64,000 nucleotides of DNA from assembly GCA_913060875.1 (NCBI GenBank), contig CAJXSL010000021.1:15017-79016 (forward strand), written 5' to 3'. Positions 47,702-64,000 of this stretch are shown piece after piece (position 1 is the first letter of the stretch; every line of letters starts with the position of its first letter). Under the pieces are notes generated by a model. The model was not told the DNA's origin and did no database searches. It saw nothing but the letters and a program-made list of their open reading frames with translations. This stretch comes from an uncultured Desulfobacteraceae bacterium. GTDB taxonomy: Bacteria; Desulfobacterota; Desulfobacteria; Desulfobacterales; UBA5852. The position numbers and the translations under genes were made by a program.

Positions 47702-47724
47702 ATGATATTGAAAGGAAACAAAAA

Positions 47725-48381
47725 ATGAAATTGATCGCGCCGTCCATTCTGTCAGCCGATTTCGCGCGCCTCGGTGAAGAGATTCAAGCGGTTGAAGCGG
47801 CCGGGGCCGACTGGATTCATGTGGATGTCATGGATGGACATTTCGTACCCAACATCACCATCGGCCCCCTTGTGGTGGAGGCCGCCCGTCGATCCACCCA
47901 ACTGCCCCTGGACGTCCACCTCATGATCGAAAACCCGGATCGTTACATCGAGGATTTTGTGAAGGCAGGTGCCGACCTGGTGGCGGTTCAGGTGGAAACC
48001 TGCATGCATCTGCATCGGACCGTGCAACTGATTCGGGAATGCGGTGCCCGACCCGGTGTGGTTCTCAATCCGACCACGCCCCTCACCAGCATCGACTGGA
48101 TCCTGGAGGATGTGGATTTCGTCATGTTGATGAGTGTCAACCCGGGGTTTGGCGGACAAAAGTTCATCCCCAGCACCTTGGGGAAAATGCGGCAATTGCG
48201 ATCCATGATCGATGAGCGCGGATTATCAACCCTGATCGAAATCGACGGGGGCGTTAACCCAACCACCATCGGTGATATTGCCGCGGCCGGGGCCGATGTC
48301 TTCGTGGCCGGTTCGGCCATCTACGGCACATCCGACTATGCGGCTACCATCAAGGAATTTCGGCAAATCATCGGCACCTAA
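47725..48381 (+). CDS. rpe: ribulose-phosphate 3-epimerase
   Basis: It has APSILSADF..HVDVMDGHFVPN..MSVNPGFGGQKF..DGG. Confidence 0.95.
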   Translation: MKLIAPSILSADFARLGEEIQAVEAAGADWIHVDVMDGHFVPNITIGPLVVEAARRSTQLPLDVHLMIENPDRYIEDFVKAGADLVAVQVETCMHLHRTVQLIRECGARPGVVLNPTTPLTSIDWILEDVDFVMLMSVNPGFGGQKFIPSTLGKMRQLRSMIDERGLSTLIEIDGGVNPTTIGDIAAAGADVFVAGSAIYGTSDYAATIKEFRQIIGT

Positions 48382-48510
48382 GGCCTTTCGATTGTCCACC
48401 CTTCAATAAACCTGGATGAGGAATCAGCCAACTTGCCAACGGGGGCTGCAAGCCATATGATTTGAAAAAGCCAATGCAGCCCTCGTCGGGTCCAAAGGAA
48501 AGGCCAGCCA

Positions 48511-49065
48511 ATGCCGGCGACAAATTTTTACCATCGGCACCCCCTTCTTAACTCCTATCTGCTCTCTTTTCTCACCTTTTCCCTGCTGCTGCCCCCCTTT
48601 GCCCATCTTGCCATCGCTTCCATGACTGATCTCGAAAAACGCCAACGCGTCAAGAACATGTATACCGATTATCGAAAGGATTTTCCCGGCGTTCCCGAAA
48701 TCGATGCAGAGGCGGCCATCTCCCTGCTATCAGATCCGAATGTTGTTTTTGTGGATGTCCGTAAACCCAAAGAGCAGGCCGTCTCCATGATTCCAGGAGC
48801 GATCGGCGACAAGCAATTCAGAGCAAATCTGAACCGGTACCGCGACAAACGCATCATTGTCTATTGCACCATCAGCTATCGCAGCGGTAAACTGGCAGCC
48901 AAACTCGCGCGCAAGGGTGTGACGGTCATCAATTTAAGGGGGGGACTCTTAGGATGGGTGCATGCTGGTGGGCCGCTCGCCCGTGGGCAGCAACCGGTGA
49001 ATAAGCTCCATGTATATGGGCGCAAATGGGATCTGGCACCCTCTGACATCGAAACCGTTTATTGA
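48511..49065 (+). CDS. rhodanese-like domain protein with signal peptide
   Basis: It has ..VFVDVRKPKEQ..IPGAI.. and the IIVYCTISYRSG active-site loop. Confidence 0.75.
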   Translation: MPATNFYHRHPLLNSYLLSFLTFSLLLPPFAHLAIASMTDLEKRQRVKNMYTDYRKDFPGVPEIDAEAAISLLSDPNVVFVDVRKPKEQAVSMIPGAIGDKQFRANLNRYRDKRIIVYCTISYRSGKLAAKLARKGVTVINLRGGLLGWVHAGGPLARGQQPVNKLHVYGRKWDLAPSDIETVY

Positions 49066-49284
49066 TCTTTTTCAAGTGTCTGTAGTCACAACTCAACTGG
49101 AAACCACTGGCACCATTGGTCCTGTGATCGGCCAAAAGAGAAAAAGCCTCCTTCCCCGACATTCTCTATATATCGGTAGCGTCAAAAATCGTTCGTCCCA
49201 AGGAATAGCGCCACATCTTCCATCAAGATCATTACCAGGAAGCGGCACCGTCCACCTTATTCCAACACCGTAATTGCATGATTC

Positions 49285-50226
49285 TCATCGGTCAGAATTA
49301 TTTTCGAGAAGGCGGCTACTCAGAACATAGGAGCAACATAGTAACAAAATTAGATTTATAACAGTTGAAAAGCAGCGGTCAAACACCACGACCAAGGCGC
49401 TTAATCCGAAGGAATTCCCCATTAAATAGCTAATACCACCGATAATCCCTTCCCGAACCCCAAGGCCACCGGGCAGGATATTGACAAAACTTGATAGAAC
49501 GCTGGCGCCTGCGAATATCAAACATAACAAGAAGTTTATTTCATTTGAAAATATTGCAAATATAATCCAAAATCGTAAGGATATTAAACATATAAATATT
49601 ACTTGAATTCCAATTATGCGCACAAGCAATCTTTTGTTTTCTCTTAAGATTGACCATCCATTTTGAACATTATCGATTACCTTCGTGACATGGTGTGGTA
49701 AAAATCTATACTTCAGTGGGGCCCATTGAATGGCGATTGAAAAAGACATTAATATAAAGCCAACGATCAAATACAAAGATATTTGTACATCATAAAAAAT
49801 GGATAAAAGGAACAAGCTTATCAAACTTGTAATTCCATTCACGGAAAGGAAACAGGCAAATAATGCTACAGTCGCTGGTAAATAATGGCTAAATTGCAAC
49901 TGATAGCGCTTCTTCAAGTAAAGCCCCTTTGCAAATAACCCCCCAGATAACGGCAATAAATTACCAATTGTATTGAGAACGGCAATACTAATGCCTTCTA
50001 TTAATGACAATGGCGCATTTAAATTGCGGTAAAATTGAGTATTAATTAGACCTCGCGCAAATACAGAGCAAACAACCAGGAAGGTTAAGAGAAAGGATTG
50101 ACTGAATGACAGATCAAAAATTATCGCCAACTGATCAAAGTCAATTAATACAAAGTATAGAACTGTAGCAATAAAGATTATAAGGATAAAGTAATTATAC
50201 AAAATTCTAAAGTTCGTTATTGCCAT
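49285..50226 (-). CDS. UPF0104 / lysyl-PG-synthase-TM-type (flippase-like) membrane protein
   Basis: 313 aa, polytopic. It has the NILPGGLGVREGIIGG signature. AT-rich codon usage. Confidence 0.7.
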   Translation of the reverse strand: MAITNFRILYNYFILIIFIATVLYFVLIDFDQLAIIFDLSFSQSFLLTFLVVCSVFARGLINTQFYRNLNAPLSLIEGISIAVLNTIGNLLPLSGGLFAKGLYLKKRYQLQFSHYLPATVALFACFLSVNGITSLISLFLLSIFYDVQISLYLIVGFILMSFSIAIQWAPLKYRFLPHHVTKVIDNVQNGWSILRENKRLLVRIIGIQVIFICLISLRFWIIFAIFSNEINFLLCLIFAGASVLSSFVNILPGGLGVREGIIGGISYLMGNSFGLSALVVVFDRCFSTVINLILLLCCSYVLSSRLLENNSDR

Positions 50227-51125
50227 TACTCTACGCTAGAATAACCAAGTCTTTGCTTAAGCATAAGCATTTTGGATTCCAAAATCGCATGAATAGGCTG
50301 CGGTTCAATGGTTTTTATTCCGTATTCATGCTGAAAAGATGAATTCACTTTATGCATTAATAAATTTTTAAGTTTATAAACATATGTCTCATGTGACAAT
50401 TCAGGAATAATTTTGCCCAGAAATCTTGACAATTCTTCCTGGTCCTGGTCAATAAACAATTTTTCAAATTTAAAAATGGATGTTTTGTTAGGAAATTCAG
50501 CATTTAAATCACAAAATAGTTGATTCAAGAAACACCAGGTCCAATAAATCTTATCCGAGATAGTAAACTGGCTCCATTGGGATAACTCAATACCAATATT
50601 CGCCGGGGTAAGTCGCTTAAGCCCTAATATGTTAATCTTATACATATTATCTTTATCCCCGAATAGCCCTCTTCTCAACCATGAGGATGCCCACGCGTTC
50701 GGTTCACGTACGATAAAAACCACTTGACTATTTGGAAAATTTAATAGTTCACGTGTTAATCCAAAAAGCTGAAAGTTACACTCAACATAGGTATCATAAC
50801 CACTAGGAATCCATGTTCGATCCCTAATTATTCTTTTTATGACACCATCTGCATCGATTTGTTTTCTTAGTCGTTTTAATGAATAATTTCTAGTCCCGGA
50901 AACTCCCAATGCCTTTAAAAGTGTAAGTTTTATGACCCCCTGTTTGGCACATCTTCTTAGTGCCTCTTTAAGACTAAGAGTGTGAAGATCGATTTTATCA
51001 GGTTCATGTACCGCATAACAATTGGGAAGTAATTTGGGAATCGCTATGGATAAAAATTGTGTCCCTGTGCGACCAGCGGAAACGATAAATATTTTTTTTA
51101 ACCTCTTAAATTCTTCGGCATGCAT
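50226..51125 (-). CDS. putative sulfotransferase family protein
   Basis: KIFIVSAGRTGTQFL is a PAPS 5'-phosphosulfate-loop-like motif. FIVREPNAWASSWL is an RxPxxxxxS-like 3'-phosphate motif. Its stop overlaps the downstream start (TAATG). Confidence 0.5.
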   Translation of the reverse strand: MHAEEFKRLKKIFIVSAGRTGTQFLSIAIPKLLPNCYAVHEPDKIDLHTLSLKEALRRCAKQGVIKLTLLKALGVSGTRNYSLKRLRKQIDADGVIKRIIRDRTWIPSGYDTYVECNFQLFGLTRELLNFPNSQVVFIVREPNAWASSWLRRGLFGDKDNMYKINILGLKRLTPANIGIELSQWSQFTISDKIYWTWCFLNQLFCDLNAEFPNKTSIFKFEKLFIDQDQEELSRFLGKIIPELSHETYVYKLKNLLMHKVNSSFQHEYGIKTIEPQPIHAILESKMLMLKQRLGYSSVE

Positions 51126-51294
51126 AATAAACTCTGTTGTGAGATCGGCATTTCTATAAAATTTCTATAGTGTTAGACAGTTGCGCCTATGCCCGCCAGC
51201 TCAAACCACTTTTAAACCTTATCCATAACAGATGCTTTCAAATCCGTATTGCCAAGAAAACAATTGATATCGCCTAAATTTGATTTCCTGTTTT

Positions 51295-52377
51295 TCAGCT
51301 GTAGCCTTTCCTAATTAAGCAGTCCACAATTTTTTTTGACGGTGATATCGACGAACCTTCTTGTTTATCAGCAATCGTTTTCCAGTTAATAAATTTCTCG
51401 GTGATGTGCTTATCAAATCCCCAAAGCATCGCATTGATGCCAATTCCATCTTTTCGTTCTGTTTTATTCCTGATAATCAAGCACTTCTTGTTCAAAAAGG
51501 CGCATTCTTCTTGTATACTTCCGCCATCGGTTAATACCATTTCTGATGAAGTAACCAAATTTAAAAACTCCGGGTAATCCAACATACTTTTAATCATAAT
51601 ATTTTCATGTAGTTTTTCATTTAATTCAAATTTTTTTAAATATTTGATGGTTGGTTTGTGTACGACAAACACAACAAGCATTTTTTTTGCGACTTGATTG
51701 AGCAAATCAACAACCTCTGACAATCTCGCTCGGTCAGATATTGTTTCCAGTCTATGGCAGGTTGCAACAGCATACTTTTCTTTGTTATGTTTTTGGGGCT
51801 CATTTTTTTTAATGTAACGAATAGCGTCTATAACCGTGTTGCCCTCAACAAAAATTTTTGCACCTCTTACGTTAAGTTTCTTTAAATTTTCAAAAGCATC
51901 TCTTGATGGGGCAAACAATATTTTAGAGAAACGCATGCAAATCATGCGAATGATTTCCTCGGGAAATGGATCAAACCAATTGTAGCTTCTCAATCCAGCT
52001 TCAACATGACAGACTCTGACTCTAGCCAAAACTGCCATGAAGGCACCCAAAAGTGTGCTGATGGTATCACCGTGAATTAGACAAATACCTTTTTCGGGGA
52101 AAACATAATTTTTTAACCACTTTCTGTCCAAACTACTTTTAATTATATTTGTCAAAAACCAATGGATCGCCTTTGATATACTTGTAATATCTTTTGTTCT
52201 CGAATTGAGTGAAATATTAGGTTCCGCAATTTTGAATACCTTCCGCAATTCCCTCGTCAACTCAGCATGTTGACCGGAATCAATATAATTATAAGATATA
52301 CCTCGATTCTGGAGTTCCATAATTATCGGAACCATCTTAATAAATTGTGCCTTTGTACCAACAAATATGTGAATCAC
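51295..52377 (-). CDS. UDP-N-acetylglucosamine 2-epimerase-like protein
   Basis: It has IHIFVGTKAQFIKMVPI.., ..LIHGDTIST.. and ..HVEAGLRS.., as in the WecB family. 360 aa. Confidence 0.7.
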   Translation of the reverse strand: MIHIFVGTKAQFIKMVPIIMELQNRGISYNYIDSGQHAELTRELRKVFKIAEPNISLNSRTKDITSISKAIHWFLTNIIKSSLDRKWLKNYVFPEKGICLIHGDTISTLLGAFMAVLARVRVCHVEAGLRSYNWFDPFPEEIIRMICMRFSKILFAPSRDAFENLKKLNVRGAKIFVEGNTVIDAIRYIKKNEPQKHNKEKYAVATCHRLETISDRARLSEVVDLLNQVAKKMLVVFVVHKPTIKYLKKFELNEKLHENIMIKSMLDYPEFLNLVTSSEMVLTDGGSIQEECAFLNKKCLIIRNKTERKDGIGINAMLWGFDKHITEKFINWKTIADKQEGSSISPSKKIVDCLIRKGYS

Positions 52378-52445
52378 AAAATACCTCTAATTTTTTAGCA
52401 GCGTCTTCCTTCAAAATAAATGTCAACGGATACAGAATTTATTCC

Positions 52446-53327
52446 TCAATTATCGCGATCAGGAAATTTTTCACTTCTTTCATACACAATTTGACATATT
52501 TGTTCAGAGACCAACCCAATCATAAAAACGATGATTGCGGTTGTGAACATAAGGGCGCTCATATTAGTGAATCGTCCCCAAGAGATATAAGTATATAAGT
52601 AATAGCATAATCCGGTGACAAAAGTTAAAGCACTTACTGGCAGGAAAATTCTAAAAGGTGAAAAAAGTGTACAAATCTTGGTGATGATCAAAAAAAATCG
52701 GATACCATCTCTAAAAACTTTTATATTGCTTTTCCCACCTCGACGAGTTGACACATCAATATCCAAGTATTTCAGAGATCGTCCGGTTCGCAATATATAT
52801 AGAGTTGATGTCGTCGGATAGGAATACCGATTCGGCAAAAGGTATAAAAAACGATTTGCCACAGAAGATCTTACACACCGGAATCCAGAAGTCAGGTCTT
52901 TGACTTTAAACTTTGCGACATACGATGCGACCATATTGCATAAGAAATTTCCAACCCCTCTAAAAAGAGAAGCCTGCTGTTCCATTGATCTTGCTCCAAC
53001 TACCATGTCGTATTCAGATAAAGCATCGATCATGGGAGCAATATCCTTCGGGTTATGCTGTCCATCGGCATCCATGAAAACAAGGACATTGCCTTTTGCA
53101 TTTCGAATTCCCGTCTTAACGGCGGCACCGTTCCCGATATTATATGGATGCCTGAAAGGCTTCGCTCCCGCTTTTTTAGCAGTCTGAAACGTCGCATCAT
53201 TCGATCCATCATCGACGACAATAATTTCATACGCAGGATATTGAGCTCTAATTTCAGCAACGATTGAACCAATTGTCTGGGCCTCATTATAACAAGGAAG
53301 GATAATTGAAACGGACGATTCTGTCAT
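52446..53327 (-). CDS. GT2 polyprenyl-phosphate glycosyltransferase (GtrB/Dpm1/ArnC-like) with C-terminal TM helices
   Basis: It has VSIILPCYNEAQTI..VVDDGSNDAT..FMDADGQH. There are two C-terminal TM segments. Confidence 0.8.
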   Translation of the reverse strand: MTESSVSIILPCYNEAQTIGSIVAEIRAQYPAYEIIVVDDGSNDATFQTAKKAGAKPFRHPYNIGNGAAVKTGIRNAKGNVLVFMDADGQHNPKDIAPMIDALSEYDMVVGARSMEQQASLFRGVGNFLCNMVASYVAKFKVKDLTSGFRCVRSSVANRFLYLLPNRYSYPTTSTLYILRTGRSLKYLDIDVSTRRGGKSNIKVFRDGIRFFLIITKICTLFSPFRIFLPVSALTFVTGLCYYLYTYISWGRFTNMSALMFTTAIIVFMIGLVSEQICQIVYERSEKFPDRDN

Positions 53328-53362
53328 GATTTGACACCCTATATTCTGATTAAGCGGCCTCT

Positions 53363-55108
53363 TCAGTTATGAAAAATGGGGTCGTCGTCTAAGCCGTATA
53401 AGCCGAAACCATTCATTTCTTCAATTTTATGTGTGTGATATTGCAAGAAAGTATTTAGTTTTAAAATATCAGATGGCTCTAATTTCATTCTTAACCAGTT
53501 TTGGTAAAGATCCAGGCGCACCATCAGGTGCGTTATCTTTTTTTTATTTAAATGCTGTAATATATCATATGCGTTTTCTGAATCTGCCACAGCATTTAAC
53601 AACAACCCTTCATTAAAGGTTATGTCCCGATCAAAATAGTACATCCTTTGCCCGAGAAATAGCCCCAGTAGGACAGCATCCGGAGCCAATCGTTCATTGA
53701 CGTATTTGATAAGTGGGTACTCGGGACGCCGTTTAGTAATATACTCATCGCTTGACACTTTTCCGCTGACATACCCCATTGGCTGTACTTTTCGGATCCG
53801 TTCAGCCATGTAATTGGCATTATATCCAATCATCACGATCACAGCCATGCTTAAAAGTATCGTATAGAAGTATTTAAAGCCAACGGCATCTGTTTTACGA
53901 ATATAGTCCCATGAGCGATATATACCCATCATGCTCAGCACAACAATCGCTGGAAGTGCAGGAACAAGATATCGGATTCTGATTGGAGCGGTGAAAAACG
54001 CCATCAAAATAAAAATTGCACTAAACCAAAACCAAATGTGTTGTTCCGCTCGCAACTTAACCGTCATCGTTCCCACAGGTAAAATTCCAACGATTAAGAA
54101 CACGAGTAAAAATGGGTTAAGTTTGCCGTCAAAGTAGCGTGGACTGTCGTCACGACCTTCATAAAAAATTCTCAGAGGCATCAATGCCATATAACCCAAT
54201 GATTCCTTGAAAACCAAATGGCGGACAGTCATCGTACCGGATGTGTCTTGGACCATTGTTGATGTCCTGCTCCATTCGACGCCTTGTTTGTCATCCGCAT
54301 TGAACACCTGCTTAAACATCGGGTAGATAGGATTATTTTTCATAACCATGTTGCGAATCATCCAAGGAGAGAATACAGACAAAGAAATGACAGCAAAACA
54401 AATGGTGGCGTTCAGAACCGGCAGCATAGCCTGCTTGTTACCGATAGTTGAGGCTTGAATATTTTCCCGCCTAAAATCCTTCTTTTTCGTTCCCTCTCTC
54501 GACCGAATGAATGGTACCATTAGGCACAGTATAGCGAAGATCAAAAGCGCATTATATTTCGTTCCCAGCGAAAGTCCGCACCATACCCCGCTCCACATCA
54601 AGTGCCGCGTTTTGAATTCTGAATCTACCCAGCGAATCAGCATATAAATGGATGCAAATCCAAAAAAAGCCACTCCCAGATCAACATAGACTTCTGACGC
54701 CAACCGAACGACAATCGGTGTGGAAAGCCAGAGCAATGCTCCCATCAAACCGAACACTGCGCTCATTCGGGTCTTCAAATATTTGTACATCAACCAGGCA
54801 GTCAATAATCCGAAGACCAGATGAATGAACTTCGGCAGTATATCGTTTCCGAAAGCAAGCGCAGCAAGGTAAAGTAAATCCAGATTCATTGGATAGTATG
54901 AAAAGGGAATATTCGGGAGCTCTACTAAACCGCCATGTTTTAAATACAGCTTAGGCAGTGCGAGATGATGGGTAAGCGCATCGCGGCTTACGGGAGGGAC
55001 ACTAGCGGTTAACACAATCCCACCAATCAGAACAAAAAGCGCAAGTAATACACACCAATAAACCGCCTGTTGTGCTTTATTGGTGCTATGTTTTAACCAA
55101 TGTCCCAT
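53363..55108 (-). CDS. GT-C fold membrane glycosyltransferase (ArnT/PMT_2-like)
   Basis: 581 aa. It has about 11 TM segments followed by a soluble C-terminal domain. The first loop reads PVSRDALTHHLALPKLY. Confidence 0.6.
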   Translation of the reverse strand: MGHWLKHSTNKAQQAVYWCVLLALFVLIGGIVLTASVPPVSRDALTHHLALPKLYLKHGGLVELPNIPFSYYPMNLDLLYLAALAFGNDILPKFIHLVFGLLTAWLMYKYLKTRMSAVFGLMGALLWLSTPIVVRLASEVYVDLGVAFFGFASIYMLIRWVDSEFKTRHLMWSGVWCGLSLGTKYNALLIFAILCLMVPFIRSREGTKKKDFRRENIQASTIGNKQAMLPVLNATICFAVISLSVFSPWMIRNMVMKNNPIYPMFKQVFNADDKQGVEWSRTSTMVQDTSGTMTVRHLVFKESLGYMALMPLRIFYEGRDDSPRYFDGKLNPFLLVFLIVGILPVGTMTVKLRAEQHIWFWFSAIFILMAFFTAPIRIRYLVPALPAIVVLSMMGIYRSWDYIRKTDAVGFKYFYTILLSMAVIVMIGYNANYMAERIRKVQPMGYVSGKVSSDEYITKRRPEYPLIKYVNERLAPDAVLLGLFLGQRMYYFDRDITFNEGLLLNAVADSENAYDILQHLNKKKITHLMVRLDLYQNWLRMKLEPSDILKLNTFLQYHTHKIEEMNGFGLYGLDDDPIFHN

Positions 55109-55229
55109 CCCTTAATAATCGTCCAGGCATTTATGCCCTGCCATATTAGATGTTCAACAAAATATACGGGTAGGCTTTCGTATTGTTGAGGCGTCCGTTA
55201 TGGGATTTATTCCCTGAATGTGCCGCTCA

Positions 55230-56105
55230 TCAATCTTCATACATATAACGTTCACGCCGCATTACGCTAATTTGATCAACTACCAAACCGAAAAAAAAGA
55301 TCATCAAAGAAGCTAAAAGGCAAAGGAGGGCCCCGTTTGCCAGCGTCAACCGAACCGTGGCAATCACGTATGCAGCATAGGCCACACCCAAGCCAGCCAA
55401 TGCGAAGGAAACCGGAATAAAAATTCTCAAAGGACTGAATAGAATCACCAGTCGTAAAATAAGCATTAGTACCATGAATCCGTGCCTCACCTGTCGTACC
55501 GTACTAGTCCCTATTCTTTTACGTGTTTTAATGGGAACAAACTTGACAAGGAAACCCATTTTCATGGCCGCAACCGTCGACGTGGAAGTAAATGAGAATC
55601 CTTCCGGCATCAGGTGTAAAATTTTTTTAATGAAAGTTCGCCGAAAAACGCGAAGACCGGAATTGATGTCGGAAATCTTTCGCCCAACTATGATATTGGC
55701 AGCCCGTGTCAGAAGCCACTTACCGGGCACTCTAAAAATATCTACACGACTACCGGTTGCCCTTTCACCTATAACCATATCAAGTTCATAGGCTTCATTG
55801 TATAGTAGCAAGAGATCTTCAGGGCGGTGCTGGCCGTCCGAATCGTAGATAGCCAGCAATTCTGTTTCAGCGGCGCGTATTCCGGTTTTCAACGCTGCAC
55901 CGTAACCGCGGTTGTATGGATGGCATATCAACCGCAACCGATCGCTATAATGTTCAAGAATTGCGCCAGTACTATCATCTGAACCGTCGTTCACGACGAT
56001 TAACTGCCAGCCCTTCGATTCGATGTGAGGCAAAAGTTCATCTAATGTTTTACGAATCGCTTTTTCCTCGTTATAGACCGGAATAATGACGGTCATTTTA
56101 CTCAT
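55230..56105 (-). CDS. GT2 polyprenyl-phosphate glycosyltransferase (GtrB/Dpm1/ArnC-like) with C-terminal TM helices
   Basis: It has MTVIIPVYNEEKAI..VVNDGSDDST..YDSDGQH. There are two C-terminal TM segments. ATG 56105 has a GGAG RBS. The ORF is open to 56135. Confidence 0.8.
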   Translation of the reverse strand: MSKMTVIIPVYNEEKAIRKTLDELLPHIESKGWQLIVVNDGSDDSTGAILEHYSDRLRLICHPYNRGYGAALKTGIRAAETELLAIYDSDGQHRPEDLLLLYNEAYELDMVIGERATGSRVDIFRVPGKWLLTRAANIIVGRKISDINSGLRVFRRTFIKKILHLMPEGFSFTSTSTVAAMKMGFLVKFVPIKTRKRIGTSTVRQVRHGFMVLMLILRLVILFSPLRIFIPVSFALAGLGVAYAAYVIATVRLTLANGALLCLLASLMIFFFGLVVDQISVMRRERYMYED

Positions 56106-56241
56106 CAGATGCCACTCCACATATGAGATCGTCAATAAATAAAGGGCAAATTACTATGTTTGCTGTACCTTCCGGGTATTGTCATCTCTCTCGACATGCG
56201 ACAGCCACTTACATACAATTTGGCAGGCGATTATCTATCCA

Positions 56242-57216
56242 TCAGTCCAAGTCTTTTGACTTGGCGATCACCAATTCCTTCCGATGGTTTAGTCGCATCC
56301 AGAAAATTACGCTGATAATACCGACGCAGATAATGTAGACCAAATTGTACAAAAACGCAAAGCTCAGAGCACTGGCAGACGAAATTTCGAAACGCCCGAA
56401 AAGAAATATAAAAACAGCTTCGCGCGTTCCGAATCCGGCTATTGTTATCGGTATAAATCCAATCAAAATAGCGACCGAAACAACCATGGCGATGGTTGAA
56501 AAACCCAGGTCTAACCCTACAGAACGGCCAATTAAATAGGTCTGAAAAAAATAAATACCATAGCTCATAACGGTCAGTAGCAGCATAAATGCAATATCTA
56601 TTGATATAAGGCGTCCGGTGACTTTACTGAAAGTCTCAAATGCATCCGCCCATTTAGTGGTAAGACGGGCGGAAATGGATTCCCTGACCATACTCGAAAC
56701 ATGGCTGGTTCTCCAAAAATAAATTACGAACCAAGGCACGACAGCGACCGTAATGCAGAATATGCTGCCGACCACTGCTGAATTTACTCCAAGTTTCATG
56801 GGATATAAGCTCGTTACAGCAAATATCAACAGACAATATAGATCCAGACAACGATCGGCGAAAATACTGGGTAACGCTTCGCTGAGTGATGCCAAGCCTC
56901 TTTGTTTTAAAAAATATGCCTTGGCAACTTCCCCCAAGCGGCCTGGTGTTATCAACCCAATGTAAATTCCTGCAAAATAAAATGATAAGGCGAATCGAAA
57001 TGGGCAGTGAATACCTTGTCGAGCAAGCATTGTTTGCCAGCGAAAAGCACGCAATCCAACTTGGGGGAGGATCAAGATAATTGCGGCACCAATTAAAATG
57101 GGGTCACTTAACTTGAGTTGGCGCCAGACCTCTTCGAGATCGACATAATAAAGAATAATCGCCAATATCGCCAAGCCAATGAACTGGGAATATTTTCTCC
57201 ATTTCATTTTGGACAT
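56242..57216 (-). CDS. UPF0104 / lysyl-PG-synthase-TM-type (flippase-like) membrane protein
   Basis: 324 aa, polytopic. It has ..GLITPGRLGE.. and ..IAGFGTREAVFIFLF signatures. Confidence 0.7.
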   Translation of the reverse strand: MSKMKWRKYSQFIGLAILAIILYYVDLEEVWRQLKLSDPILIGAAIILILPQVGLRAFRWQTMLARQGIHCPFRFALSFYFAGIYIGLITPGRLGEVAKAYFLKQRGLASLSEALPSIFADRCLDLYCLLIFAVTSLYPMKLGVNSAVVGSIFCITVAVVPWFVIYFWRTSHVSSMVRESISARLTTKWADAFETFSKVTGRLISIDIAFMLLLTVMSYGIYFFQTYLIGRSVGLDLGFSTIAMVVSVAILIGFIPITIAGFGTREAVFIFLFGRFEISSASALSFAFLYNLVYIICVGIISVIFWMRLNHRKELVIAKSKDLD

Positions 57217-57368
57217 TGATTTTCCATTGATGAATCAGTAAAATTCATGTTGCACCAGAGCAAAGGTAACAACGTGATGCCTAGTTTTAGCAAAGCATAT
57301 GGGACAGGCCAAACCCATGTACGATTCGTTTGCTCATACCGCTCACTTCTATAAATAGCACCATCCTA

Positions 57369-58535
57369 TTACGGCAACGCTTTGCGAAGAATCTCCGGTG
57401 GTATCTGGGCCAGATACACCTTACCGTTAATAACATAGGCGGGTGTCCCCGATATATCCAATTTCATGCCGGCCCATATATCCTTTGCTAACAGCATCTG
57501 TAAATCAGTTCTTTCGCGCAGGGCTTTACGCATGCCCGACAGGTCAACGCCTGTCTGTGCGGCAAGATCTCGAAGATTTAATTCTTCCCTTTTGGAGCCT
57601 TTTTCAAATAAAAGATCATTCATTTGCCAGAATTTTCCCTGCTCATTGGCGTAAAGCGCCAGGATGGCCATTTGACCTGACCCTGTGTGAAAAGGCTCCT
57701 TCACAAGAGGATTGATGGCATGGTCCATTGGAAAATGTCGGTGCACGATACGGATACGTTCGGGATAACGGGCAACAAGCTTACGTAAATAGCGATGCAT
57801 CTTGCGGCATTGAAAACAGAGGTAATCCGTATATTCCGTTATTTCCAGCTCCGGACTCGATGCCCCGATCCAGGGATGCCCGTCATCGGTAATGCCGGTC
57901 GTCAGGGTCCCTATGGGCATTTCGTCACTATACTGCCAGTACGAAGGGAAGGCGACAATCGCCAGAAGCGATACCGATATGATAAAGACGCCACTCCAGC
58001 GCGTTATTGAATTGCACCACAACATGAGGAGGTCTTGCTTTAGCCCATTAAAAAATGAGGGGAGATAGAATCGTTTGCGAATGATCCAGATGTAAAACAA
58101 CAATAGCAGGTTTATGCCGTAGCTCAGGATGCACATAATACAATAGCTGTGGACATAATAGGTGGAAATGAATGCCAGAAGGACGCTATAGAGGCTGAAC
58201 AATACCGCGATCAATTGAAGAAGCGCCCAGCCGTTTTTTTCCCGGTGCCAATCCCCCTTTGCTTTGACGAGTAACAGTGAAAAGACCAGGTATCCCAGAA
58301 CGCCCCATACAGGCACCGGAACTCCTAATAAAATTGAAAATGGGCTTTGGGAAACCGTGTCGCAATTAATGGACTTACTGATGGCGCAAAAACTGCTGTA
58401 ACCGATATCGGCATATACCCTGTAATGGGATATGGACAGATAAACGGAGTCAGCCACCCCACATAGCGATAAGATGAAAGCCGGCCAGAAATAGACTGGA
58501 AATGGATATGCCTTGATTTCTTTTTTTGGATGCAA
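57369..58535 (-). CDS. vitamin K epoxide reductase (VKOR) domain fused to a DsbA-like thioredoxin domain
   Basis: N-terminal part: 5 TM segments with loop cysteines (SFCAISKSINCD) and CIMC in a TM helix. C-terminal part: periplasmic domain with YLCFQC (CxxC) and ..GTPAYVINGK. Confidence 0.8.
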   Translation of the reverse strand: MHPKKEIKAYPFPVYFWPAFILSLCGVADSVYLSISHYRVYADIGYSSFCAISKSINCDTVSQSPFSILLGVPVPVWGVLGYLVFSLLLVKAKGDWHREKNGWALLQLIAVLFSLYSVLLAFISTYYVHSYCIMCILSYGINLLLLFYIWIIRKRFYLPSFFNGLKQDLLMLWCNSITRWSGVFIISVSLLAIVAFPSYWQYSDEMPIGTLTTGITDDGHPWIGASSPELEITEYTDYLCFQCRKMHRYLRKLVARYPERIRIVHRHFPMDHAINPLVKEPFHTGSGQMAILALYANEQGKFWQMNDLLFEKGSKREELNLRDLAAQTGVDLSGMRKALRERTDLQMLLAKDIWAGMKLDISGTPAYVINGKVYLAQIPPEILRKALP

Positions 58536-58568
58536 ATTCTTCTACCTTGTTAATAACAACGCTGTTTT

Positions 58569-60644
58569 TTAACGTGGTGATTGGCTCCGCCCGATTGTGT
58601 GGATATGCTCTTGAAGAATTATCCGTAATTTTTCGGTATCGCCGATTTCATTGACCGAATCATTTAATATAGCAGCGATGGCACCAATCGAAAAACGGTT
58701 AAAAATTTCATTTATGATACGGTTTGCATTTGCCTGATCACGGCGGGCTAAATGATTCTCCAGCATGCAAAGCATGACGGTCAGATCTCCGGGAGCAACC
58801 CGGTAGGCCCGCCGTAAAAACCAGTCACCCTGGTCCGGATAGTCCATTTCTGTAAGCACGACCCCCATCTGAAGGTTAGCCGCCCGACTGTCCGGCTCAA
58901 GCTGCAACAGGCGTCGTGAAATCAATAGGGATTCTTCCAACCGATGTTGCTTCAACAGAACAAACCCTTTTAAATTCAGCGCATGGATATCATCCGGGTT
59001 ATTTTCAATCAGCCAGTCCAGATGCTCGGTGGTTCTTTCAAATTGACCGGTTTCCGTGTAGGCAACGGCAATATTATAACGCGATCTGGTTGTCGCCGGC
59101 AATATCTCCAGAGCCTTCTCATAATACGCGATGGCCCTGTCAAGATCGCCTTTTTTAAAGTAGATCGTACCGATGTTGGTCAAGGCCATGACCTCAAAAT
59201 GCTTTCTGCGCGGCGGCTGCAGCGACATACTCTTTATGTAAAGGATTATGGCCTGTTCATGACTACCCGCCCGTTCGAGTTCTTTTGCCAGATTAAAGAC
59301 CGGTCGCGCCCTTCCAGGCGCCTTTCGTTGGGTATCCGACCACAAACGGCCCTCGCTCCGCCAATCCATGTTGCGGGCATAGGTCCCTGCGCATAGCAAG
59401 AACACAACCAATATTGGCAAAATCCGGAACACTGCGGCGAATTGGTGGCTCCGCAACCGCAACTTTTTTTTTAAGTCAAACCATCCGGCTGCTATCGGCA
59501 AGAAAACAAAGATCGAAGATACATAATTTCTATGTTCAAAAACCAGTTCTAAAGGGAGAATGGAGGATTCAACAACATGGTTGAGAAAGAAAAACAAAAC
59601 AGCGAAAGCCTCAAGCGGCCGTTTGCGGATCATCAAAATCCCTGCGCCGATGAGGAGTCCTACGATTAAAATGGAAGGCAATGTGGTCCAGGGATGCAAC
59701 AAACTGGTGGATACCGTGAAATCGTGCTCCAAGGAAAGTCGCTGGGGGATCGGATAAAAAACGAGGCTAATATAAAAAACCAGCACCCGCGGCTGGGTCA
59801 TCAATCGTTCCATCAGTGAAAACGGCCTCATCTCAAAAGATCGTGTCAGTGAATGGACGATATCCTTATTCGACCCGTAAAAATATACGCCGCTGAAAAC
59901 AACGACTAACAAGCTGGCCATGATAATCGTGGCACCAAATCGAGGGCTGAGCACCCGCTCTGATTTTTCCTGGAAAAAAATTATTTCAACCAAAGCTAAT
60001 GCCAGGGGAAGCATTGAGGCGTTTTCTTTGGTTCCCATAGCCAGAATAAACCCTGCTAAAACCAGTCCTCCCCACAGGACCTTGTGCTTCATTCGGGTCG
60101 CTAATCGAAATTGGATAAAAGAGGCTAATGCCGCGATATAAAACAAGGCCATCAAGCTGGCCATCCGTTGGACAATATAAGTAACAGCCTGGGTCTGCAT
60201 GGGGTTTAGGGCCCACAGCAGGCTGGTCCCAAGTGCAATTGAATAGATATGCGCACGATGGCGCGCGGGGAAACGAGGTGTGGTTCCTATCAAAAGAATG
60301 ACCCGATAAACCAGCCAGGCATTAAGGATATGGATAACCAGGTTGATCAGATGAAACCCGGTGACATTGTCACCATGTAAAAACCAGTTGAGAGCAAAAG
60401 ACAAGTTGGCCACAGGCCGTGACAGGTTGTTGCCATAGAGTTGGTCAATGCCGACGGCCCGTAACAGAGATTCCCCGTTCCAAGCCGTCATCTGTATGGC
60501 AGGATTGTTGAGGATGTTGGGGTAATCGTCCATGTGCCAGGACGCATGAAAAGTGTTGCCATACGCCGCCAGCAAAAACAGGAGTATCGTCAGCAAGGCT
60601 GCCGCGTGTCTGCTTTTCGTTAAGGAAAATATCGGATCAATCAT
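58569..60644 (-). CDS. TMTC-like GT-C membrane protein with C-terminal TPR repeats (paralog 1)
   Basis: 691 aa. It has ..WHMDDYPNILNNP.., ..FHLINLVIHILNAWLVY.. and ..NPMQTQAVTYIVQRMASL.. About 10 TM segments are followed by TPR repeats. Confidence 0.7.
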   Translation of the reverse strand: MIDPIFSLTKSRHAAALLTILLFLLAAYGNTFHASWHMDDYPNILNNPAIQMTAWNGESLLRAVGIDQLYGNNLSRPVANLSFALNWFLHGDNVTGFHLINLVIHILNAWLVYRVILLIGTTPRFPARHRAHIYSIALGTSLLWALNPMQTQAVTYIVQRMASLMALFYIAALASFIQFRLATRMKHKVLWGGLVLAGFILAMGTKENASMLPLALALVEIIFFQEKSERVLSPRFGATIIMASLLVVVFSGVYFYGSNKDIVHSLTRSFEMRPFSLMERLMTQPRVLVFYISLVFYPIPQRLSLEHDFTVSTSLLHPWTTLPSILIVGLLIGAGILMIRKRPLEAFAVLFFFLNHVVESSILPLELVFEHRNYVSSIFVFLPIAAGWFDLKKKLRLRSHQFAAVFRILPILVVFLLCAGTYARNMDWRSEGRLWSDTQRKAPGRARPVFNLAKELERAGSHEQAIILYIKSMSLQPPRRKHFEVMALTNIGTIYFKKGDLDRAIAYYEKALEILPATTRSRYNIAVAYTETGQFERTTEHLDWLIENNPDDIHALNLKGFVLLKQHRLEESLLISRRLLQLEPDSRAANLQMGVVLTEMDYPDQGDWFLRRAYRVAPGDLTVMLCMLENHLARRDQANANRIINEIFNRFSIGAIAAILNDSVNEIGDTEKLRIILQEHIHTIGRSQSPR

Positions 60645-60673
60645 AGCGTCACTTTTGCCGTATCATCCAGACT

Positions 60674-62761
60674 TCACGGGGAGATCAAATGTTCTATTCG
60701 GGCACCTGCTAGATGGCCCGCGACAAATGGGCGGACAATGCTCATATCATAAAGAGGTGTGTCTTTCACGGAACTGGTGAATAACCCTGCAAGGATGCCC
60801 AAAGGAATTTGATAAATGAGTTCCCGCACGTAATCGTCCGCCGTTGATAGCTGACCGGATTTCAAACTCAGGTCGATCAAGCACAGTCGCGGTTTCAAAT
60901 TCCTCGGATCCAATCGTTTCGCCTTCTCGAGCGTGACGGCTGCCTCTGTCATCTCACCCACCCGAATCAGGGTCACACCCAGGTTCAGCAACGTATTCAC
61001 ATCATCCGGTTTCTGCGCTATCGATTGTTCAAACAGTTCTTGCGCTTCTTGCGGAAAACCCATCTGCAGCCGGATCAGGCCTGCCACATTCAGGTAATAT
61101 GGGTGGGATGGATTATGGTCCAATAGAGTTTGAGAGTGCGGCAACGCTTGTTTATATTTTCCCTCGGATATTAAAGCGGCAATCAAGTTGTAACGCGCAA
61201 TTTCATGCTCAGGAAAAACTTCAAGGGCACGGTCAAAATGTTCAATGGCGGGCCCTGTTTGCTGCCACTTTCGCAATAGCGTGCCCATGTTGGTCAGGGC
61301 GAGAGCGCGTGCACGCTGGGGGGAGGGGTCGTATAAACCCAGGGAATGTTTGTAGAGTTTGAAGGCCAATGGCAAATTGTGATGCGCTTCATAATAGGCG
61401 GCAAGCTGCAAGTAGGGTCGCGCCGTGTTTGGGGTCTTAACCAGGGTATCCTCCCAGAAAAGACGTTTGTTGCCCCACACCCGATTACGGCTGTAGGTGG
61501 CCGCGCCAAGGGCCACAATGACCATCACCGTCATCACCACGAGCAGGCCTTTTCGTAAACCTGCGCGGTCCTGGAAGGCCTCGATAGCATTTCTAAGAAC
61601 GGTTGCCACCGGAACGAATAAAAACATGGTCGGCAGGTAATTGCGATGCTCAAAAACCAGTTCTAACGGAATAATGGTTGATTCAACCACATGGTTGGCG
61701 ACAAAAAACAAAATCGCCAGTGCCACATAACGGTGTCGTCTTATGGCGGCCAGGCCGATACCGATCATCGCTCCGATGCTGATCAGGGATGGGATGGTGG
61801 TCCAGGGTTCGAAAAGAGAGGTTGATACTTGGAACTCGTGCACAAGAGAAAATCGCCCCGGTAAAGGCCACAATATCTGGGACAGATAAAATAGGACAAC
61901 CCGGGGCTGGGTCAGGAGTCTCTCCGAAAGGGTGAAGGGTCGCCCTTGGTAGGCACGCTCCAAATAATCGATGGGATTGCCTTTCCATATCCATAGAAAA
62001 GAAATGCAACCAAACAGCAAGACCGCGCCGACGCCGAGTGTCAACCGCACAATCCGCTTCCGAACGCCGGGCGTCTCCAAATCCTGAAAAAAAAGGATTT
62101 CAACAAGTAGGAGTGATGCCGGCAGTAAGGCCGTGTTTAATTTGGAGCCTAACGCCAGGGCGTAGCAAAGAGCACAACCAGCGAAAAAAACGATCCGGCG
62201 TCGGTGATTTGTTGGCTGGCGGCCGACAATGTATAAATAGACGGCCGTAATAAAGAAAAGAGCGGCCAGTGATGTGGATCGCTGCACAATGTATGTCACA
62301 GCCTGCGTCTGTAAGGGATGTAACGCCCACAAAACCGTGGCAACCAGGGCAATAAACTGTGCCCTTTCATCGTCGCGGCATGATTTGGGTGGGCTTCGGA
62401 GGAGAGCCTTCAGGGTAAGATAGAGAACCAGGGCCGACAAAAAATGAATCAACAGATTCACGGCATGGTAGCCAGCGACATCATTTCCATAAAAAAACCA
62501 GTTCAGCCCGAATGAAATCATGGCCACGGGCCGGTGGAGGATGCCGCTACTGCCGGGTTGGTTCGCGTGGTAGTAGGCACTTTTTAATATTTCAGTCGGC
62601 GAAAGATCGGCGATATGAATGGCCGTATTGTTGACGATGCGCAGAAAATCATCAAAATACCAAGGCACATGGAAAGTGTTGGCATAACAGGCGGCAACCA
62701 ATCCTAATATCAAAAGCGGTACCAGGTCGGTTCGTTCTGATCCTTTGATCTCGGACGGCAT
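60674..62761 (-). CDS. TMTC-like GT-C membrane protein with C-terminal TPR repeats (paralog 2)
   Basis: 695 aa. It is collinear with 58569-60644 (..WYFDDFLRIVNNT.., YHAVNLLIHFLSALVLY, HPLQTQAVTYIVQRSTSL, LELVFEHRNY). Confidence 0.7.
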   Translation of the reverse strand: MPSEIKGSERTDLVPLLILGLVAACYANTFHVPWYFDDFLRIVNNTAIHIADLSPTEILKSAYYHANQPGSSGILHRPVAMISFGLNWFFYGNDVAGYHAVNLLIHFLSALVLYLTLKALLRSPPKSCRDDERAQFIALVATVLWALHPLQTQAVTYIVQRSTSLAALFFITAVYLYIVGRQPTNHRRRIVFFAGCALCYALALGSKLNTALLPASLLLVEILFFQDLETPGVRKRIVRLTLGVGAVLLFGCISFLWIWKGNPIDYLERAYQGRPFTLSERLLTQPRVVLFYLSQILWPLPGRFSLVHEFQVSTSLFEPWTTIPSLISIGAMIGIGLAAIRRHRYVALAILFFVANHVVESTIIPLELVFEHRNYLPTMFLFVPVATVLRNAIEAFQDRAGLRKGLLVVMTVMVIVALGAATYSRNRVWGNKRLFWEDTLVKTPNTARPYLQLAAYYEAHHNLPLAFKLYKHSLGLYDPSPQRARALALTNMGTLLRKWQQTGPAIEHFDRALEVFPEHEIARYNLIAALISEGKYKQALPHSQTLLDHNPSHPYYLNVAGLIRLQMGFPQEAQELFEQSIAQKPDDVNTLLNLGVTLIRVGEMTEAAVTLEKAKRLDPRNLKPRLCLIDLSLKSGQLSTADDYVRELIYQIPLGILAGLFTSSVKDTPLYDMSIVRPFVAGHLAGARIEHLISP

Positions 62762-62963
62762 TGCAGCTCAACCTTCTTTTGCTGGATCTTTAGAAGAGGA
62801 TAGTTTTTAAATAGAGCGTTCGGCCACCAGCACAAACAGAATAATCTATTATCAGGGAAGGTTGAAAGGTCAAGCTCTTTTGATGTCAGGCCGTGCGGAT
62901 TGTCCTCGATGGACCATGATCGATAATTGAACGCGGCTAAACCATGGTATCTTTCTCCATATA

Positions 62964-62996
62964 AAAAAGGGGAGGCACTAGATGCCTCCCCTTTTT
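62964..62996 (-). terminator. rho-independent terminator after pilA
   Basis: The minus strand reads aaaaaggggaggca-tctag-tgcctcccc, followed by tttttt. Confidence 0.8.
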
Positions 62997-63025
62997 CGTA
63001 TTAATTATGTCAGGATCCTGGATGG

Positions 63026-63412
63026 TTACTGCATGGTAATCGTGTAGACACCTCCGGACCAGCGACTGTCACCAGCCTGGTAGTCGGCCGGGCAGCGATT
63101 GCTGCCGTCGGTGACGGCAACCGTAATAGCGTTGATGCTGCCGCTGATGGCCCCGCTGTTGCCTGCGGAAACTTCAATGTTAATCGCAGCTGGGGATGCC
63201 GGGACAGAATTGTTCCCAGGAATGGAGTAGTAGTCCGCCAGACCGGCCATAATGGCTTGAGCATCGGATTCGGCAGCCGAACAGAATGCCTTGTTACGGT
63301 AAGCAATGAAGTTGGGAATAGCGATCGCCGCCAGGATACCGATAATGGCGATGACGATCATGAGCTCGATCAGGGTGAAACCTTCTTTGTTGCTTCTCAG
63401 TTTCTGCAGCAT
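63026..63412 (-). CDS. pilA: type IV pilin (prepilin with N-terminal methylation motif)
   Basis: [35 protein letters not shown]. 128 aa. Two Cys (C44, C107). RBS agaggagg. Confidence 0.9.
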
Positions 63413-63539
63413 GGTTAATCCTCCTCTTAAGGTGTTAAAAAAATATTGAAATTGGGTTGACGAATGTTAGCTGCCGCCGGATGTCATTGGGCGCTTTCCG
63501 TCGCGCCGAGTACGACCTCATTCGTTGGCTTAAAGATCA

Positions 63540-63555
63540 AGCAATGAGCATGCCA
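63540..63555 (-). promoter_or_regulatory. sigma-54 (-24/-12) promoter for pilA
   Basis: The minus strand reads TGGCAT-GCTCA-TTGCT (GG-N10-GC), about 128 nt upstream of the pilA ATG. The adjacent gene is a PilR-like enhancer-binding protein. Confidence 0.7.
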
Positions 63556-63660
63556 GAATTCAAATCCCCACACACATTAAATTCATATGCCAGTATTTAT
63601 TGTAAAATTCTTCCAGAATCCCTGGAGGGCGAATTCCGACTCAGCCCATGAGGATCAAGT

Positions 63661-63681
63661 CTCTGACACAATTTGTCAGAG
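63661..63681. promoter_or_regulatory. palindrome CTCTGACA-caatt-TGTCAGAG, candidate enhancer-binding (PilR) site
   Basis: Perfect 8-bp arms, about 110 bp upstream of the -24 element. It contains TGTC/GACA cores. Confidence 0.4.
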
Positions 63682-63767
63682 CCTTGACATTTTTTGGCAG
63701 GGTGTAACGGTCTGTGCACCAAGGGGATACTTTTTTACAATAGGGAATGCTTATTTTGTTGCCCCCC

Positions 63768-64000
63768 CTATTTGTCGTCCGCCATCTTTCCCAGGCGGTG
63801 CCGGAAGGATCGGAAGGTGATGCCCAGCAATTCGGCTGCGCGGTTCTTGTTGCCATCGGAAAAGACCAGCGCCTTTTTGAGGTAGGCGTATTCGATTTCC
63901 CGCAGAACGACGTCCAGAGCCACGCCTTTGGCCACATCGTCCAAGTCGTAGCGCTTGCCTTCCACCCCTTCGATCCAGCGGCGCTTGTGCACCGAAAGCG
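63768..64000 (-). CDS. sigma-54-dependent Fis-family response regulator, C-terminal part (PilR-like; 5' end outside window)
   Basis: The frame is open to the window edge. The C-terminal Fis-type HTH reads ..ALVFSDGNKNRAAELLGITFRSFRHRLGKM. Confidence 0.75.
   Translation of the reverse strand, partial: LSVHKRRWIEGVEGKRYDLDDVAKGVALDVVLREIEYAYLKKALVFSDGNKNRAAELLGITFRSFRHRLGKMADDK

Follow-up and report, generated by a model that had tools for sequence, protein, structure and literature searches.

Two tandem genes, here called paralogs A and B, lie directly downstream of the type IV pilin gene pilA in the window, a 64,000-nucleotide stretch of DNA from an uncultured Desulfobacteraceae bacterium (contig CAJXSL010000021.1). 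Judged by sequence, the encoded proteins are homologous to the TMTC protein O-mannosyltransferases of animals. Their membrane domain has a GT-C glycosyltransferase fold, the catalytic residues are conserved, and the linkage to pilin genes is conserved in related loci. It seems fairly probable that the two paralogs are periplasm-facing, lipid-phosphate-sugar-dependent O-glycosyltransferases of the pilin, where we infer the donor, the pilin acceptor and the roles of the two paralogs and of their C-terminal tetratricopeptide repeat (TPR) domains. The original prediction for this DNA held in describing a TMTC-like GT-C and TPR protein pair that co-localizes with pilin; its claim of an enzyme type not characterized in bacteria and its argument from a Ser-rich pilin did not.

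The two collinear open reading frames of ~690 residues that had been proposed were found on the minus strand, with lengths of 695 and 691 amino acids. Their paralogy is supported by BLASTP, with 36% identity across 661 residues (E 8e-140). All four motifs that had been quoted for the pair are present in A and in B: the DD(Y/F) loop motif (WYFDDF and WHMDDY in the two paralogs), the H..NL.IH motif (YHAVNLLIH and FHLINLVIH), the QTQ-region motif (HPLQTQAVTYIVQR and NPMQTQAVTYIVQR) and LELVFEHRNY, which is common to both. In an alignment of 44 homologues, with ~35-85% identity to paralog A, the positions of these motifs are invariant or nearly so. D37-D38, located directly after the first transmembrane (TM) helix in the first extracytoplasmic loop, are invariant in these sequences, as are K207, R373 and ~50 other columns, and every family-invariant column is retained in both paralogs, B included. 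A and B differ little in their distance to the remaining members of the family (39-46%), and no clean split into A-type and B-type proteins is observed across loci.

In paralog A, the membrane domain comprises residues ~1-445 with 11 helices and is followed by the TPR domain (~446-660). Many TPR families match the C-terminal thirds of both proteins, as had been claimed (TPR_1 2e-16 and 4e-15), and these matches cover residues ~446-650. The N-terminus is basic and the predicted model contains eleven membrane helices; the active site (D37-D38, K207 and R373) and the TPR domain are predicted to face the periplasm.

For the membrane domain (residues 1-445) of A and of B, Pfam and NCBIfam gave no match even at E 10, and these family libraries cannot classify it. 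Also, when 19 family members were scanned singly, their membrane domains remained without a Pfam match, and database names for family members are nearly always 'tetratricopeptide repeat protein'. Sequence searches of the PDB with a single sequence and with the family profile returned only TPR chains or noise and no TMTC-family chain, and in a plasmid tblastn search the matches were confined to the TPR region. A reading as O-antigen ligase (Wzy_C) was dismissed, since a single member of the 19 matched, at E 2.8.

The predicted fold was used for classification instead. In both AlphaFold2 models, TPR hairpins come after eleven long membrane helices, with a predicted local distance difference test score (pLDDT) of 85.8 for the full-length protein and of 81.5 for the N-domain alone (predicted template modelling score 0.85). 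Foldseek with the full-length model returned TPR proteins only, and because these swamped the search, the N-domain was modelled alone. With the N-domain model, all PDB matches with a probability of at least 0.9 are GT-C enzymes, namely STT3 (6ftg_5, 6s7o_A, 7oci_F and 6c26_A), AglB (3waj), ArnT (5f15), Pmt4 (9i5k_A and 9i5l_A), DPY19 (7zli_A) and ALG3 (9s6r_A). Across these matches, the TM-scores on the query are 0.34-0.49 and the best E-value is 2e-3; a probability of 1.00 was reached by GT-C enzymes only (STT3, AglB, ArnT, Pmt4 and DPY19). The description of the pair as GT-C plus TPR proteins is thus backed by the Foldseek fold and by the TPR domain evidence.

The relationship with animal TMTC1-4 was examined by profile comparison, using eight rows of the published N-domain alignment (PMC7801869, supplement) and, on the family side, an alignment of 19 N-domains (alignment A2). 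The two profiles were aligned by hhalign over 400 columns, with both domains covered end to end, a probability of 99.75% and an E-value of 3.4e-27, which upholds the label TMTC-like. Reversed or column-shuffled TMTC alignments gave a probability of 0.1 and ArnT alone 0.3. Similarly, the family hidden Markov model scored the TMTCs at 59-92 bits in hmmsearch, versus 0.1 bits for ArnT. In the residue alignment, D52/D53 of TMTC1 correspond to D37/D38, K219 to K207, and R404 (AERV) to R373 (EHRN). In the TMTCs, these residues have been assigned to catalysis, metal binding and donor-phosphate binding (PMC7801869). H89/K90 of TMTC1, also among the residues assigned to donor-phosphate and acceptor binding, are not kept in the family. 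A search with the N-domain profile showed that the superfamily is large, with 74,886 clusters (50% identity) at E <= 1e-3 and 14,971 at E <= 1e-30.

A second, shorter TMTC-like subfamily (~600 amino acids) with the motif HPLHVE is frequent in the same pilin clusters. Its members, given as locus and coordinates, are L008:10061-11905, L014:12979-14760, L034:11178-13070, L046:3792-5633, L046:5708-7801, L051:3880-5721, L057:12706-14577 and L078:9548-11392. Pfam scans of four of them placed PMT_2 near the threshold in three and found TPR repeats in all four. Seven of the eight score higher in hhalign against TMTC1-4 (probability 98.8-99.4) than against the family of the window.

The linkage with pilin genes was studied in 79 related loci from a scan of one genome per species. 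These are mostly from Desulfobacterota (Desulfobacterales, the cable bacteria Electrothrix and Electronema, and Smithella/Syntrophus relatives), with a minority from Nitrospirota, Chromatiaceae, Bacteroidales and Pirellulales. The check for co-localization that had been proposed was positive: in 52 of the 79 loci, a family gene has a pilin open reading frame at a distance of no more than 600 bp, upstream on the same strand in 37 and convergent downstream in 12. Since the family gene is at a contig end in nine of the 27 unpaired loci, the pairing amounts to ~74% of the loci with usable flanks. The background density of pilins elsewhere in the same loci is 0.03 open reading frames per kb. The median spacer between pilin and family gene is ~120 bp, and the pairing is seen in two orientations, with two unrelated pilin classes and in several Desulfobacterota orders; single paired loci are labelled Bacteroidales and Deltaproteobacteria. 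In the recurrent order of genes, the pilin is followed by between one and four family genes, and these by a VKOR-DsbA fusion, a PMT_2 GT-C and a glycosyltransferase of family 2 (GT2). Independent gene calls and Pfam scans of two further contigs gave PilR, an N_methyl pilin, a family gene, VKOR-DsbA, a PMT GT-C and a GT2. One of these contigs, from the Desulfobacteraceae metagenome-assembled genome GCA_014237205.1, agrees with the window in gene order at every position, and its pilin is nearly identical. As the pairing recurs across many sulfate-reducing bacteria, the most likely role of the paralogs is glycosylation of the pilin, as carried out by TfpW in Pseudomonas aeruginosa.

Two further patterns connect the cluster with the pilin. 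Of 38 spacers between pilin and family gene in related loci, 28 contain a strong hairpin with a T-run; pilin-accessory cassettes are known for an attenuating terminator of this kind after pilA (PMC11841053). In addition, VKOR-DsbA is present in 28 of the 34 loci in which the adjacent pilin has at least two cysteines, versus none of the 17 with a cysteine-free pilin (Fisher p 7e-9). At least one neighbouring gene thus tracks the chemistry of the pilin, and together with the hairpins this pattern indicates that the cluster is tied to the pilin and not to the general neighbourhood. VKOR-DsbA, which combines a membrane quinone reductase with a periplasmic thiol oxidase, is likely the oxidant for the pilin disulfide, and the association suggests that these anaerobes use it as a disulfide oxidase dedicated to the pilin. 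TMTC-like family genes occur with both pilin classes.

Several of the related loci have features of their own. Cultured carriers of the cluster are Desulfofustis glycolicus DSM 9705 (L022) and Desulfonema magnum 4be13 (L052), while Desulfosudis oleivorans is represented by metagenome-assembled genomes only (L018 and L071). In the cable bacteria (Candidatus Electronema / Electrothrix), a pilin is followed by two TMTC-like genes, VKOR-DsbA and a PMT_2 GT-C at L020:5322-12837, and by two TMTC-like genes at L025:5345-10025. A paper on cable bacteria treats these TMTC-like genes as TPR proteins for protein-protein interaction (PMC10580974); in the literature searched, this is the only mention of the cluster, and no paper joining TMTC, prokaryotes and pilin was found. 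The Smithella-type loci L042, L046, L051, L054 and L069 have cysteine-free pilins with a different N-terminus (FTLIEIIAVLVILGILAAVAVP), arranged as two to three tandem copies that face as many as four TMTC-like genes in convergent orientation; the flanks contain no VKOR-DsbA, PMT_2 GT-C or GT2. The pilin open reading frame adjoining the Syntrophus TMTC-like genes (L047:3710-3931) contains an ambiguous residue and has an aberrant C-terminal part, probably due to an assembly error or a frameshift in the metagenome-assembled genome. In L080, a PhdYeFM/PIN toxin-antitoxin pair (9424-10124) is located between VKOR-DsbA and the PMT-type GT-C of an otherwise syntenic cluster.

The features of the window at this locus are collected in Table 1. 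pilA and the paralogs follow each other on the same strand, as had been noted, with a terminator-like hairpin between pilA and paralog A. The pilA product matches N_methyl (2.5e-10) and the NCBIfam models PilA, GspG and IV_pilin_GFxxxE, and its cluster mates bear the name 'type IV pilus assembly protein PilA'. The promoter-like element upstream of pilA is the sole match to TGGCAYN5TTGCW in the window, with 0.29 expected by chance. Full-length PilR-like genes (Response_reg, Sigma54_activat and HTH_8) are present in L080 and L081 at the position of the PilR-type activator of the window. Scans for Rfam and tRNA features returned nothing of relevance near the locus. The two-cysteine pilins that adjoin family genes (window and L001-L078) form a tight subfamily with an invariant terminus, the motif DYF(A/S)IP-x-(H/N)-T around residues 50-57 and invariant C96-P97 and W107; this subfamily is hypervariable between residues ~58 and ~85.

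Table 1. Features at the pilin locus, in window coordinates and in the order of decreasing position.
Feature	Position	Strand	Details
PilR-type sigma-54 activator, 3' end (Fis-type HTH)	63768-64000	minus	gene extends past window; HTH_8 2.5e-10
Sigma-54-type promoter-like element	63540-63555	minus	TGGCATgctcaTTGCT; ~128 nt upstream of pilA start
pilA, major type IV pilin	63026-63412	minus	128 aa; mature 117 aa, 2 Cys
Intrinsic-terminator-like palindromic hairpin	62964-62996	unstranded	14-bp stem, 7 G-C pairs, flanking A and T runs
Paralog A, TMTC-like GT-C domain and C-terminal TPR	60674-62761	minus	695 aa
Paralog B, architecture as paralog A	58569-60644	minus	691 aa
VKOR-DsbA fusion	57369-58535	minus	VKOR 9e-25, DSBA 5e-14
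Flippase-like protein (LPG_synthase_TM / TIGR00374)	56242-57216	minus	PF03706 6e-48; TIGR00374 96.7 bits (cutoff 43.2)
GT2, polyprenyl-phosphate sugar synthase type	55230-56135	minus	Glycos_transf_2 1e-30; two C-terminal TM helices
Third GT-C, PMT_2 / ArnT-like, without TPR	53363-55108	minus	581 aa; PMT_2 1.6e-9
Second polyprenyl-phosphate-type GT2	52446-53327	minus	two C-terminal TM helices
WecB-like UDP-GlcNAc 2-epimerase	51295-52377	minus	Epimerase_2 2e-61; TIGR00236 204.7 bits, just under cutoff 210
Sulfotransferase-like protein, weak match	50226-51125	minus	Sulfotransfer_4 2.6e-5, 24.6 bits (cutoff 22.8)
Second flippase-like protein (LPG_synthase_TM)	49285-50226	minus	PF03706 6.8e-19; last gene of minus-strand block

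Downstream of VKOR-DsbA, the parts of a three-component system (a polyprenyl-phosphate GT2 and a flippase-like protein) are present twice, in addition to the three GT-Cs of the whole cluster. Both GT2s resemble synthases of the AglJ, PpgS, dolichyl-phosphate hexose transferase and ArnC type, and for the GT2 next to the first flippase-like gene these best NCBIfam similarities are all below the cutoffs. This first flippase-like protein is a candidate flippase for a lipid-phosphate-sugar, and a gene of the same type is present at the same position in L081. Homologues of the PMT_2 GT-C recur 3' of VKOR-DsbA in related loci. The region at 50-54 kb, with a GT2 and the genes for the WecB-like epimerase, the sulfotransferase-like protein and a flippase-like protein, has a GC content of 35-39%, versus ~45-60% in most other 2-kb windows. 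Such a low GC content is typical of exchangeable surface-glycan genes, and the region resembles a sugar module that is exchanged horizontally or varies fast.

In the proposed pathway, the two downstream GT2s would load sugars on undecaprenyl phosphate at the cytoplasmic face, after which the two flippase-like proteins would carry the lipid-linked sugars across the membrane. In the periplasm, the TMTC-like enzymes may then transfer these sugars to Ser/Thr residues of the pilin while it is still anchored in the membrane, ahead of its assembly. Recruitment of the pilin or of partner enzymes could be the task of the TPR domain, and the two paralogs might cover different sites or different sugars. 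VKOR-DsbA would form the pilin disulfide, and the terminator after pilA would hold the expression of the accessory genes far below the level of the pilin. A further elaboration is a dedicated multi-enzyme pilin O-glycosylation system, in which each tandem paralog has its own undecaprenyl-phosphate sugar and its own pilin site, mirroring the division of labour among TMTC1-4; this version is tentative and in our judgement rather unlikely.

Multiple observations weigh against pilin glycosylation by the paralogs. PF08409 (TMTC_DUF1736), which describes the EL4 loop (TM7-TM8), is unmatched at E <= 10 in both paralogs and in the 19 family members; in the same library, human TMTC3 (1.1e-31) and TMTC4 (8e-33) do match it. 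The equivalent of TMTC1 D169, a residue assigned to acceptor binding (PMC7801869), is Ser, Thr or Ala here, and the TMTC motif HTE is replaced by QTQ. Due to these changes, the acceptor or the chemistry may differ from that of the TMTCs. Taken together, the full-length homology, the unmatched PF08409 and the residue differences point to a homologous yet distinct bacterial branch. Members of the superfamily probably have other substrates for the most part, and about a quarter of the loci with usable flanks are without an adjacent pilin. No sigma-70-like promoter for the paralogs and no proof of read-through into them was found. Also, the third GT-C of the cluster could be the enzyme that acts on the pilin. 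The pilin itself, whose C-terminal half was described earlier as Ser-rich and as offering plausible acceptor sites, is not unusually rich in Ser/Thr: its globular part contains 18% Ser+Thr, versus medians of 22% in family-adjacent pilins and 20% in pilins elsewhere in the same loci, and this argument carries no weight. The Ser/Thr columns conserved in the two-cysteine pilin class are S34, S38, S71, S/T75, T77 and S93, from which acceptor sites cannot be named with confidence.

The most serious alternative is that the TMTC-like enzymes act on targets other than pilin, such as other periplasmic or surface proteins, a polysaccharide or a lipid needed for pilus function, and that they adjoin pilA through shared regulation or as part of a surface-variation island. 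The size of the superfamily, whose members cannot mostly be pilin enzymes, fits this explanation, as do the loci without an adjacent pilin, the lack of conservation of the acceptor-side acidic residue of TMTC/ArnT and the resemblance of the downstream block to a generic low-GC surface-glycan island. However, the pilin is an immediate neighbour across a short spacer, this arrangement holds across two orientations, two pilin classes and several orders, and the spacer bears a terminator typical of pilin-accessory cassettes. In the Smithella-type loci, moreover, the pilin and the TMTC-like genes are retained without the rest of the glycan block. A non-pilin target is considered unlikely.

It has also been considered that the paralogs mainly work as glycan polymerases or oligosaccharyltransferases instead of single-sugar enzymes, with initiation and elongation split between the two. 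TfpW is reported to polymerize and transfer, three GT-Cs and two donor-synthesis modules are present in one cluster, and some loci have up to four tandem paralogs, all of which would suit such a role. The block contains no polymerase or chain-length genes, however, nor an initiating phosphoglycosyltransferase for an undecaprenyl-diphosphate (Und-PP)-linked oligosaccharide, and the TMTCs, the closest homologues of known activity, add single mannoses (PMC7801869), which makes this role distinctly improbable. Finally, the paralogs could be non-catalytic pilin accessory proteins, chaperones or assembly adaptors like TfpY, which would keep pilins in the membrane by means of their TPR domain and a degenerate GT-C scaffold. 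Accessory proteins without enzymatic function are common in pilin cassettes (PMC11841053), and the cable-bacteria literature reads the genes as interaction proteins (PMC10580974). A degenerate scaffold is difficult to reconcile with the invariance of the DD motif, K207, R373 and the ~50 further columns in both paralogs, and with the co-encoded genes for donor synthesis, so that this explanation is highly improbable. Pilin O-glycosylation thus remains the preferred function of the paralogs.

The locus is a well-supported and testable bacterial model for the TMTCs and points to a likely unrecognized pilin modification in Desulfobacterota. If a dedicated multi-enzyme system is at work, pilins of this phylum would be heavily glycosylated, among them PilA of cable bacteria, which is the most abundant protein detected in these organisms and has no known role (PMC10580974). 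In that case, the pilin clusters would also be the nearest tractable models among prokaryotes for the animal cadherin O-mannosyltransferases, and perhaps the source from which these evolved. If pilins are glycosylated, the surface chemistry, phage resistance and antigenic variation of pili, and the claims of their conductivity, would have to be reconsidered in Desulfobacterota, syntrophs and cable bacteria. A 2021 analysis noted that the enzymatic activity of TMTCs had not been directly shown (PMC7801869), and a bacterial homologue with a small co-encoded substrate candidate and donor genes would make the TMTC mechanism and TPR-based substrate choice testable. In addition, there is a gap in annotation, as ~75,000 clusters (50% identity) match a membrane domain for which Pfam and NCBIfam have no model.

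TMTC1-4 (CAZy GT105) are O-mannosyltransferases of the endoplasmic reticulum that act on cadherins and protocadherins, and their 11-TM domain is homologous to that of the family over the full length. Common to both are the motifs DD, RP..L(T/S)F.LN, H.VN...H, HP..T.AV....R, K(E/x)(N/x), R.LT and (E/H)R.(L/N)Y.PS. In both, the protein ends in TPR repeats on the non-cytoplasmic side (for the family, this side is predicted), and a genome encodes several paralogs. Unlike the TMTCs, the family is without PF08409, D169 and the E of HTE; its carrier would be undecaprenyl in place of dolichyl, and its proposed acceptor is pilin in place of cadherin.

Systems in which a polyprenyl-phosphate GT2, a small flippase and a GT-C are co-encoded are known from the three-component concept of periplasmic glycosylation (PMC11127046), for example GtrA/GtrB/GtrC and ArnC/ArnEF/ArnT. 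The cluster resembles these systems in its components. In contrast, its flippase candidates are of the LPG_synthase_TM type and not GtrA or ArnE/F, its GT-C paralogs carry TPR domains, and the proposed acceptor is a protein and not O-antigen or lipid A. TfpO/PilO and PglL also modify pilin in the periplasm, and the TfpO gene likewise lies right after pilA, but these enzymes belong to an unrelated Wzy_C-type family and transfer Und-PP-linked oligosaccharides.

The closest precedent is TfpW of P. aeruginosa, a GT-C of 646 amino acids for which 11 TM helices are predicted, with an essential DDX motif in periplasmic loop 1 and a periplasmic TPR domain at the C-terminus. Its gene lies directly 3' of pilA, is co-transcribed with it and is needed for D-arabinofuranosylation of the pilin; TfpW has been proposed or reported to polymerize D-arabinofuranose and to transfer it (bioRxiv 10.1101/2020.04.19.049825). 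TfpW homologues adjoin pilA in several Gammaproteobacteria and in Kingella. Since TfpW agrees with the paralogs in architecture and gene position and its glycosylation of pilin is proven, the earlier claim of a type not characterized in bacteria was overstated. Given this precedent, the kind of enzyme is not new, and the paralogs are better described as probable TfpW-type pilin cassette enzymes of TMTC ancestry. As in the group IV cassettes of P. aeruginosa / P. paraeruginosa, they directly follow pilA with an intervening terminator, and they share with TfpW, known here by its published description only, a length of ~650-700 amino acids, ~11 TM helices, DDx in periplasmic loop 1 and the TPR domain. 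The TfpW motif YX6PFX7P has Y375-x6-F-x-P as its counterpart in the family, which is not the exact motif. The sugar that TfpW transfers is supplied on a polyprenyl phosphate, and the enzymes that make this donor are encoded separately; the same is proposed here. The donor of TfpW is D-arabinofuranose from a DprE1/DprE2-type pathway with PPPRS, whereas the genes scanned here (46349-64000) include two GT2s, flippase-like proteins and a WecB-like epimerase. Unlike the TfpW cassette, the cluster contains two tandem paralogs (up to four elsewhere), an additional PMT_2 GT-C and VKOR-DsbA, and it belongs to a different host phylum. What differs or is new is thus the TMTC homology, the donors from GT2s and flippases, the tandem paralogs, the extra GT-C, the VKOR-DsbA partner and the phylogenetic setting.

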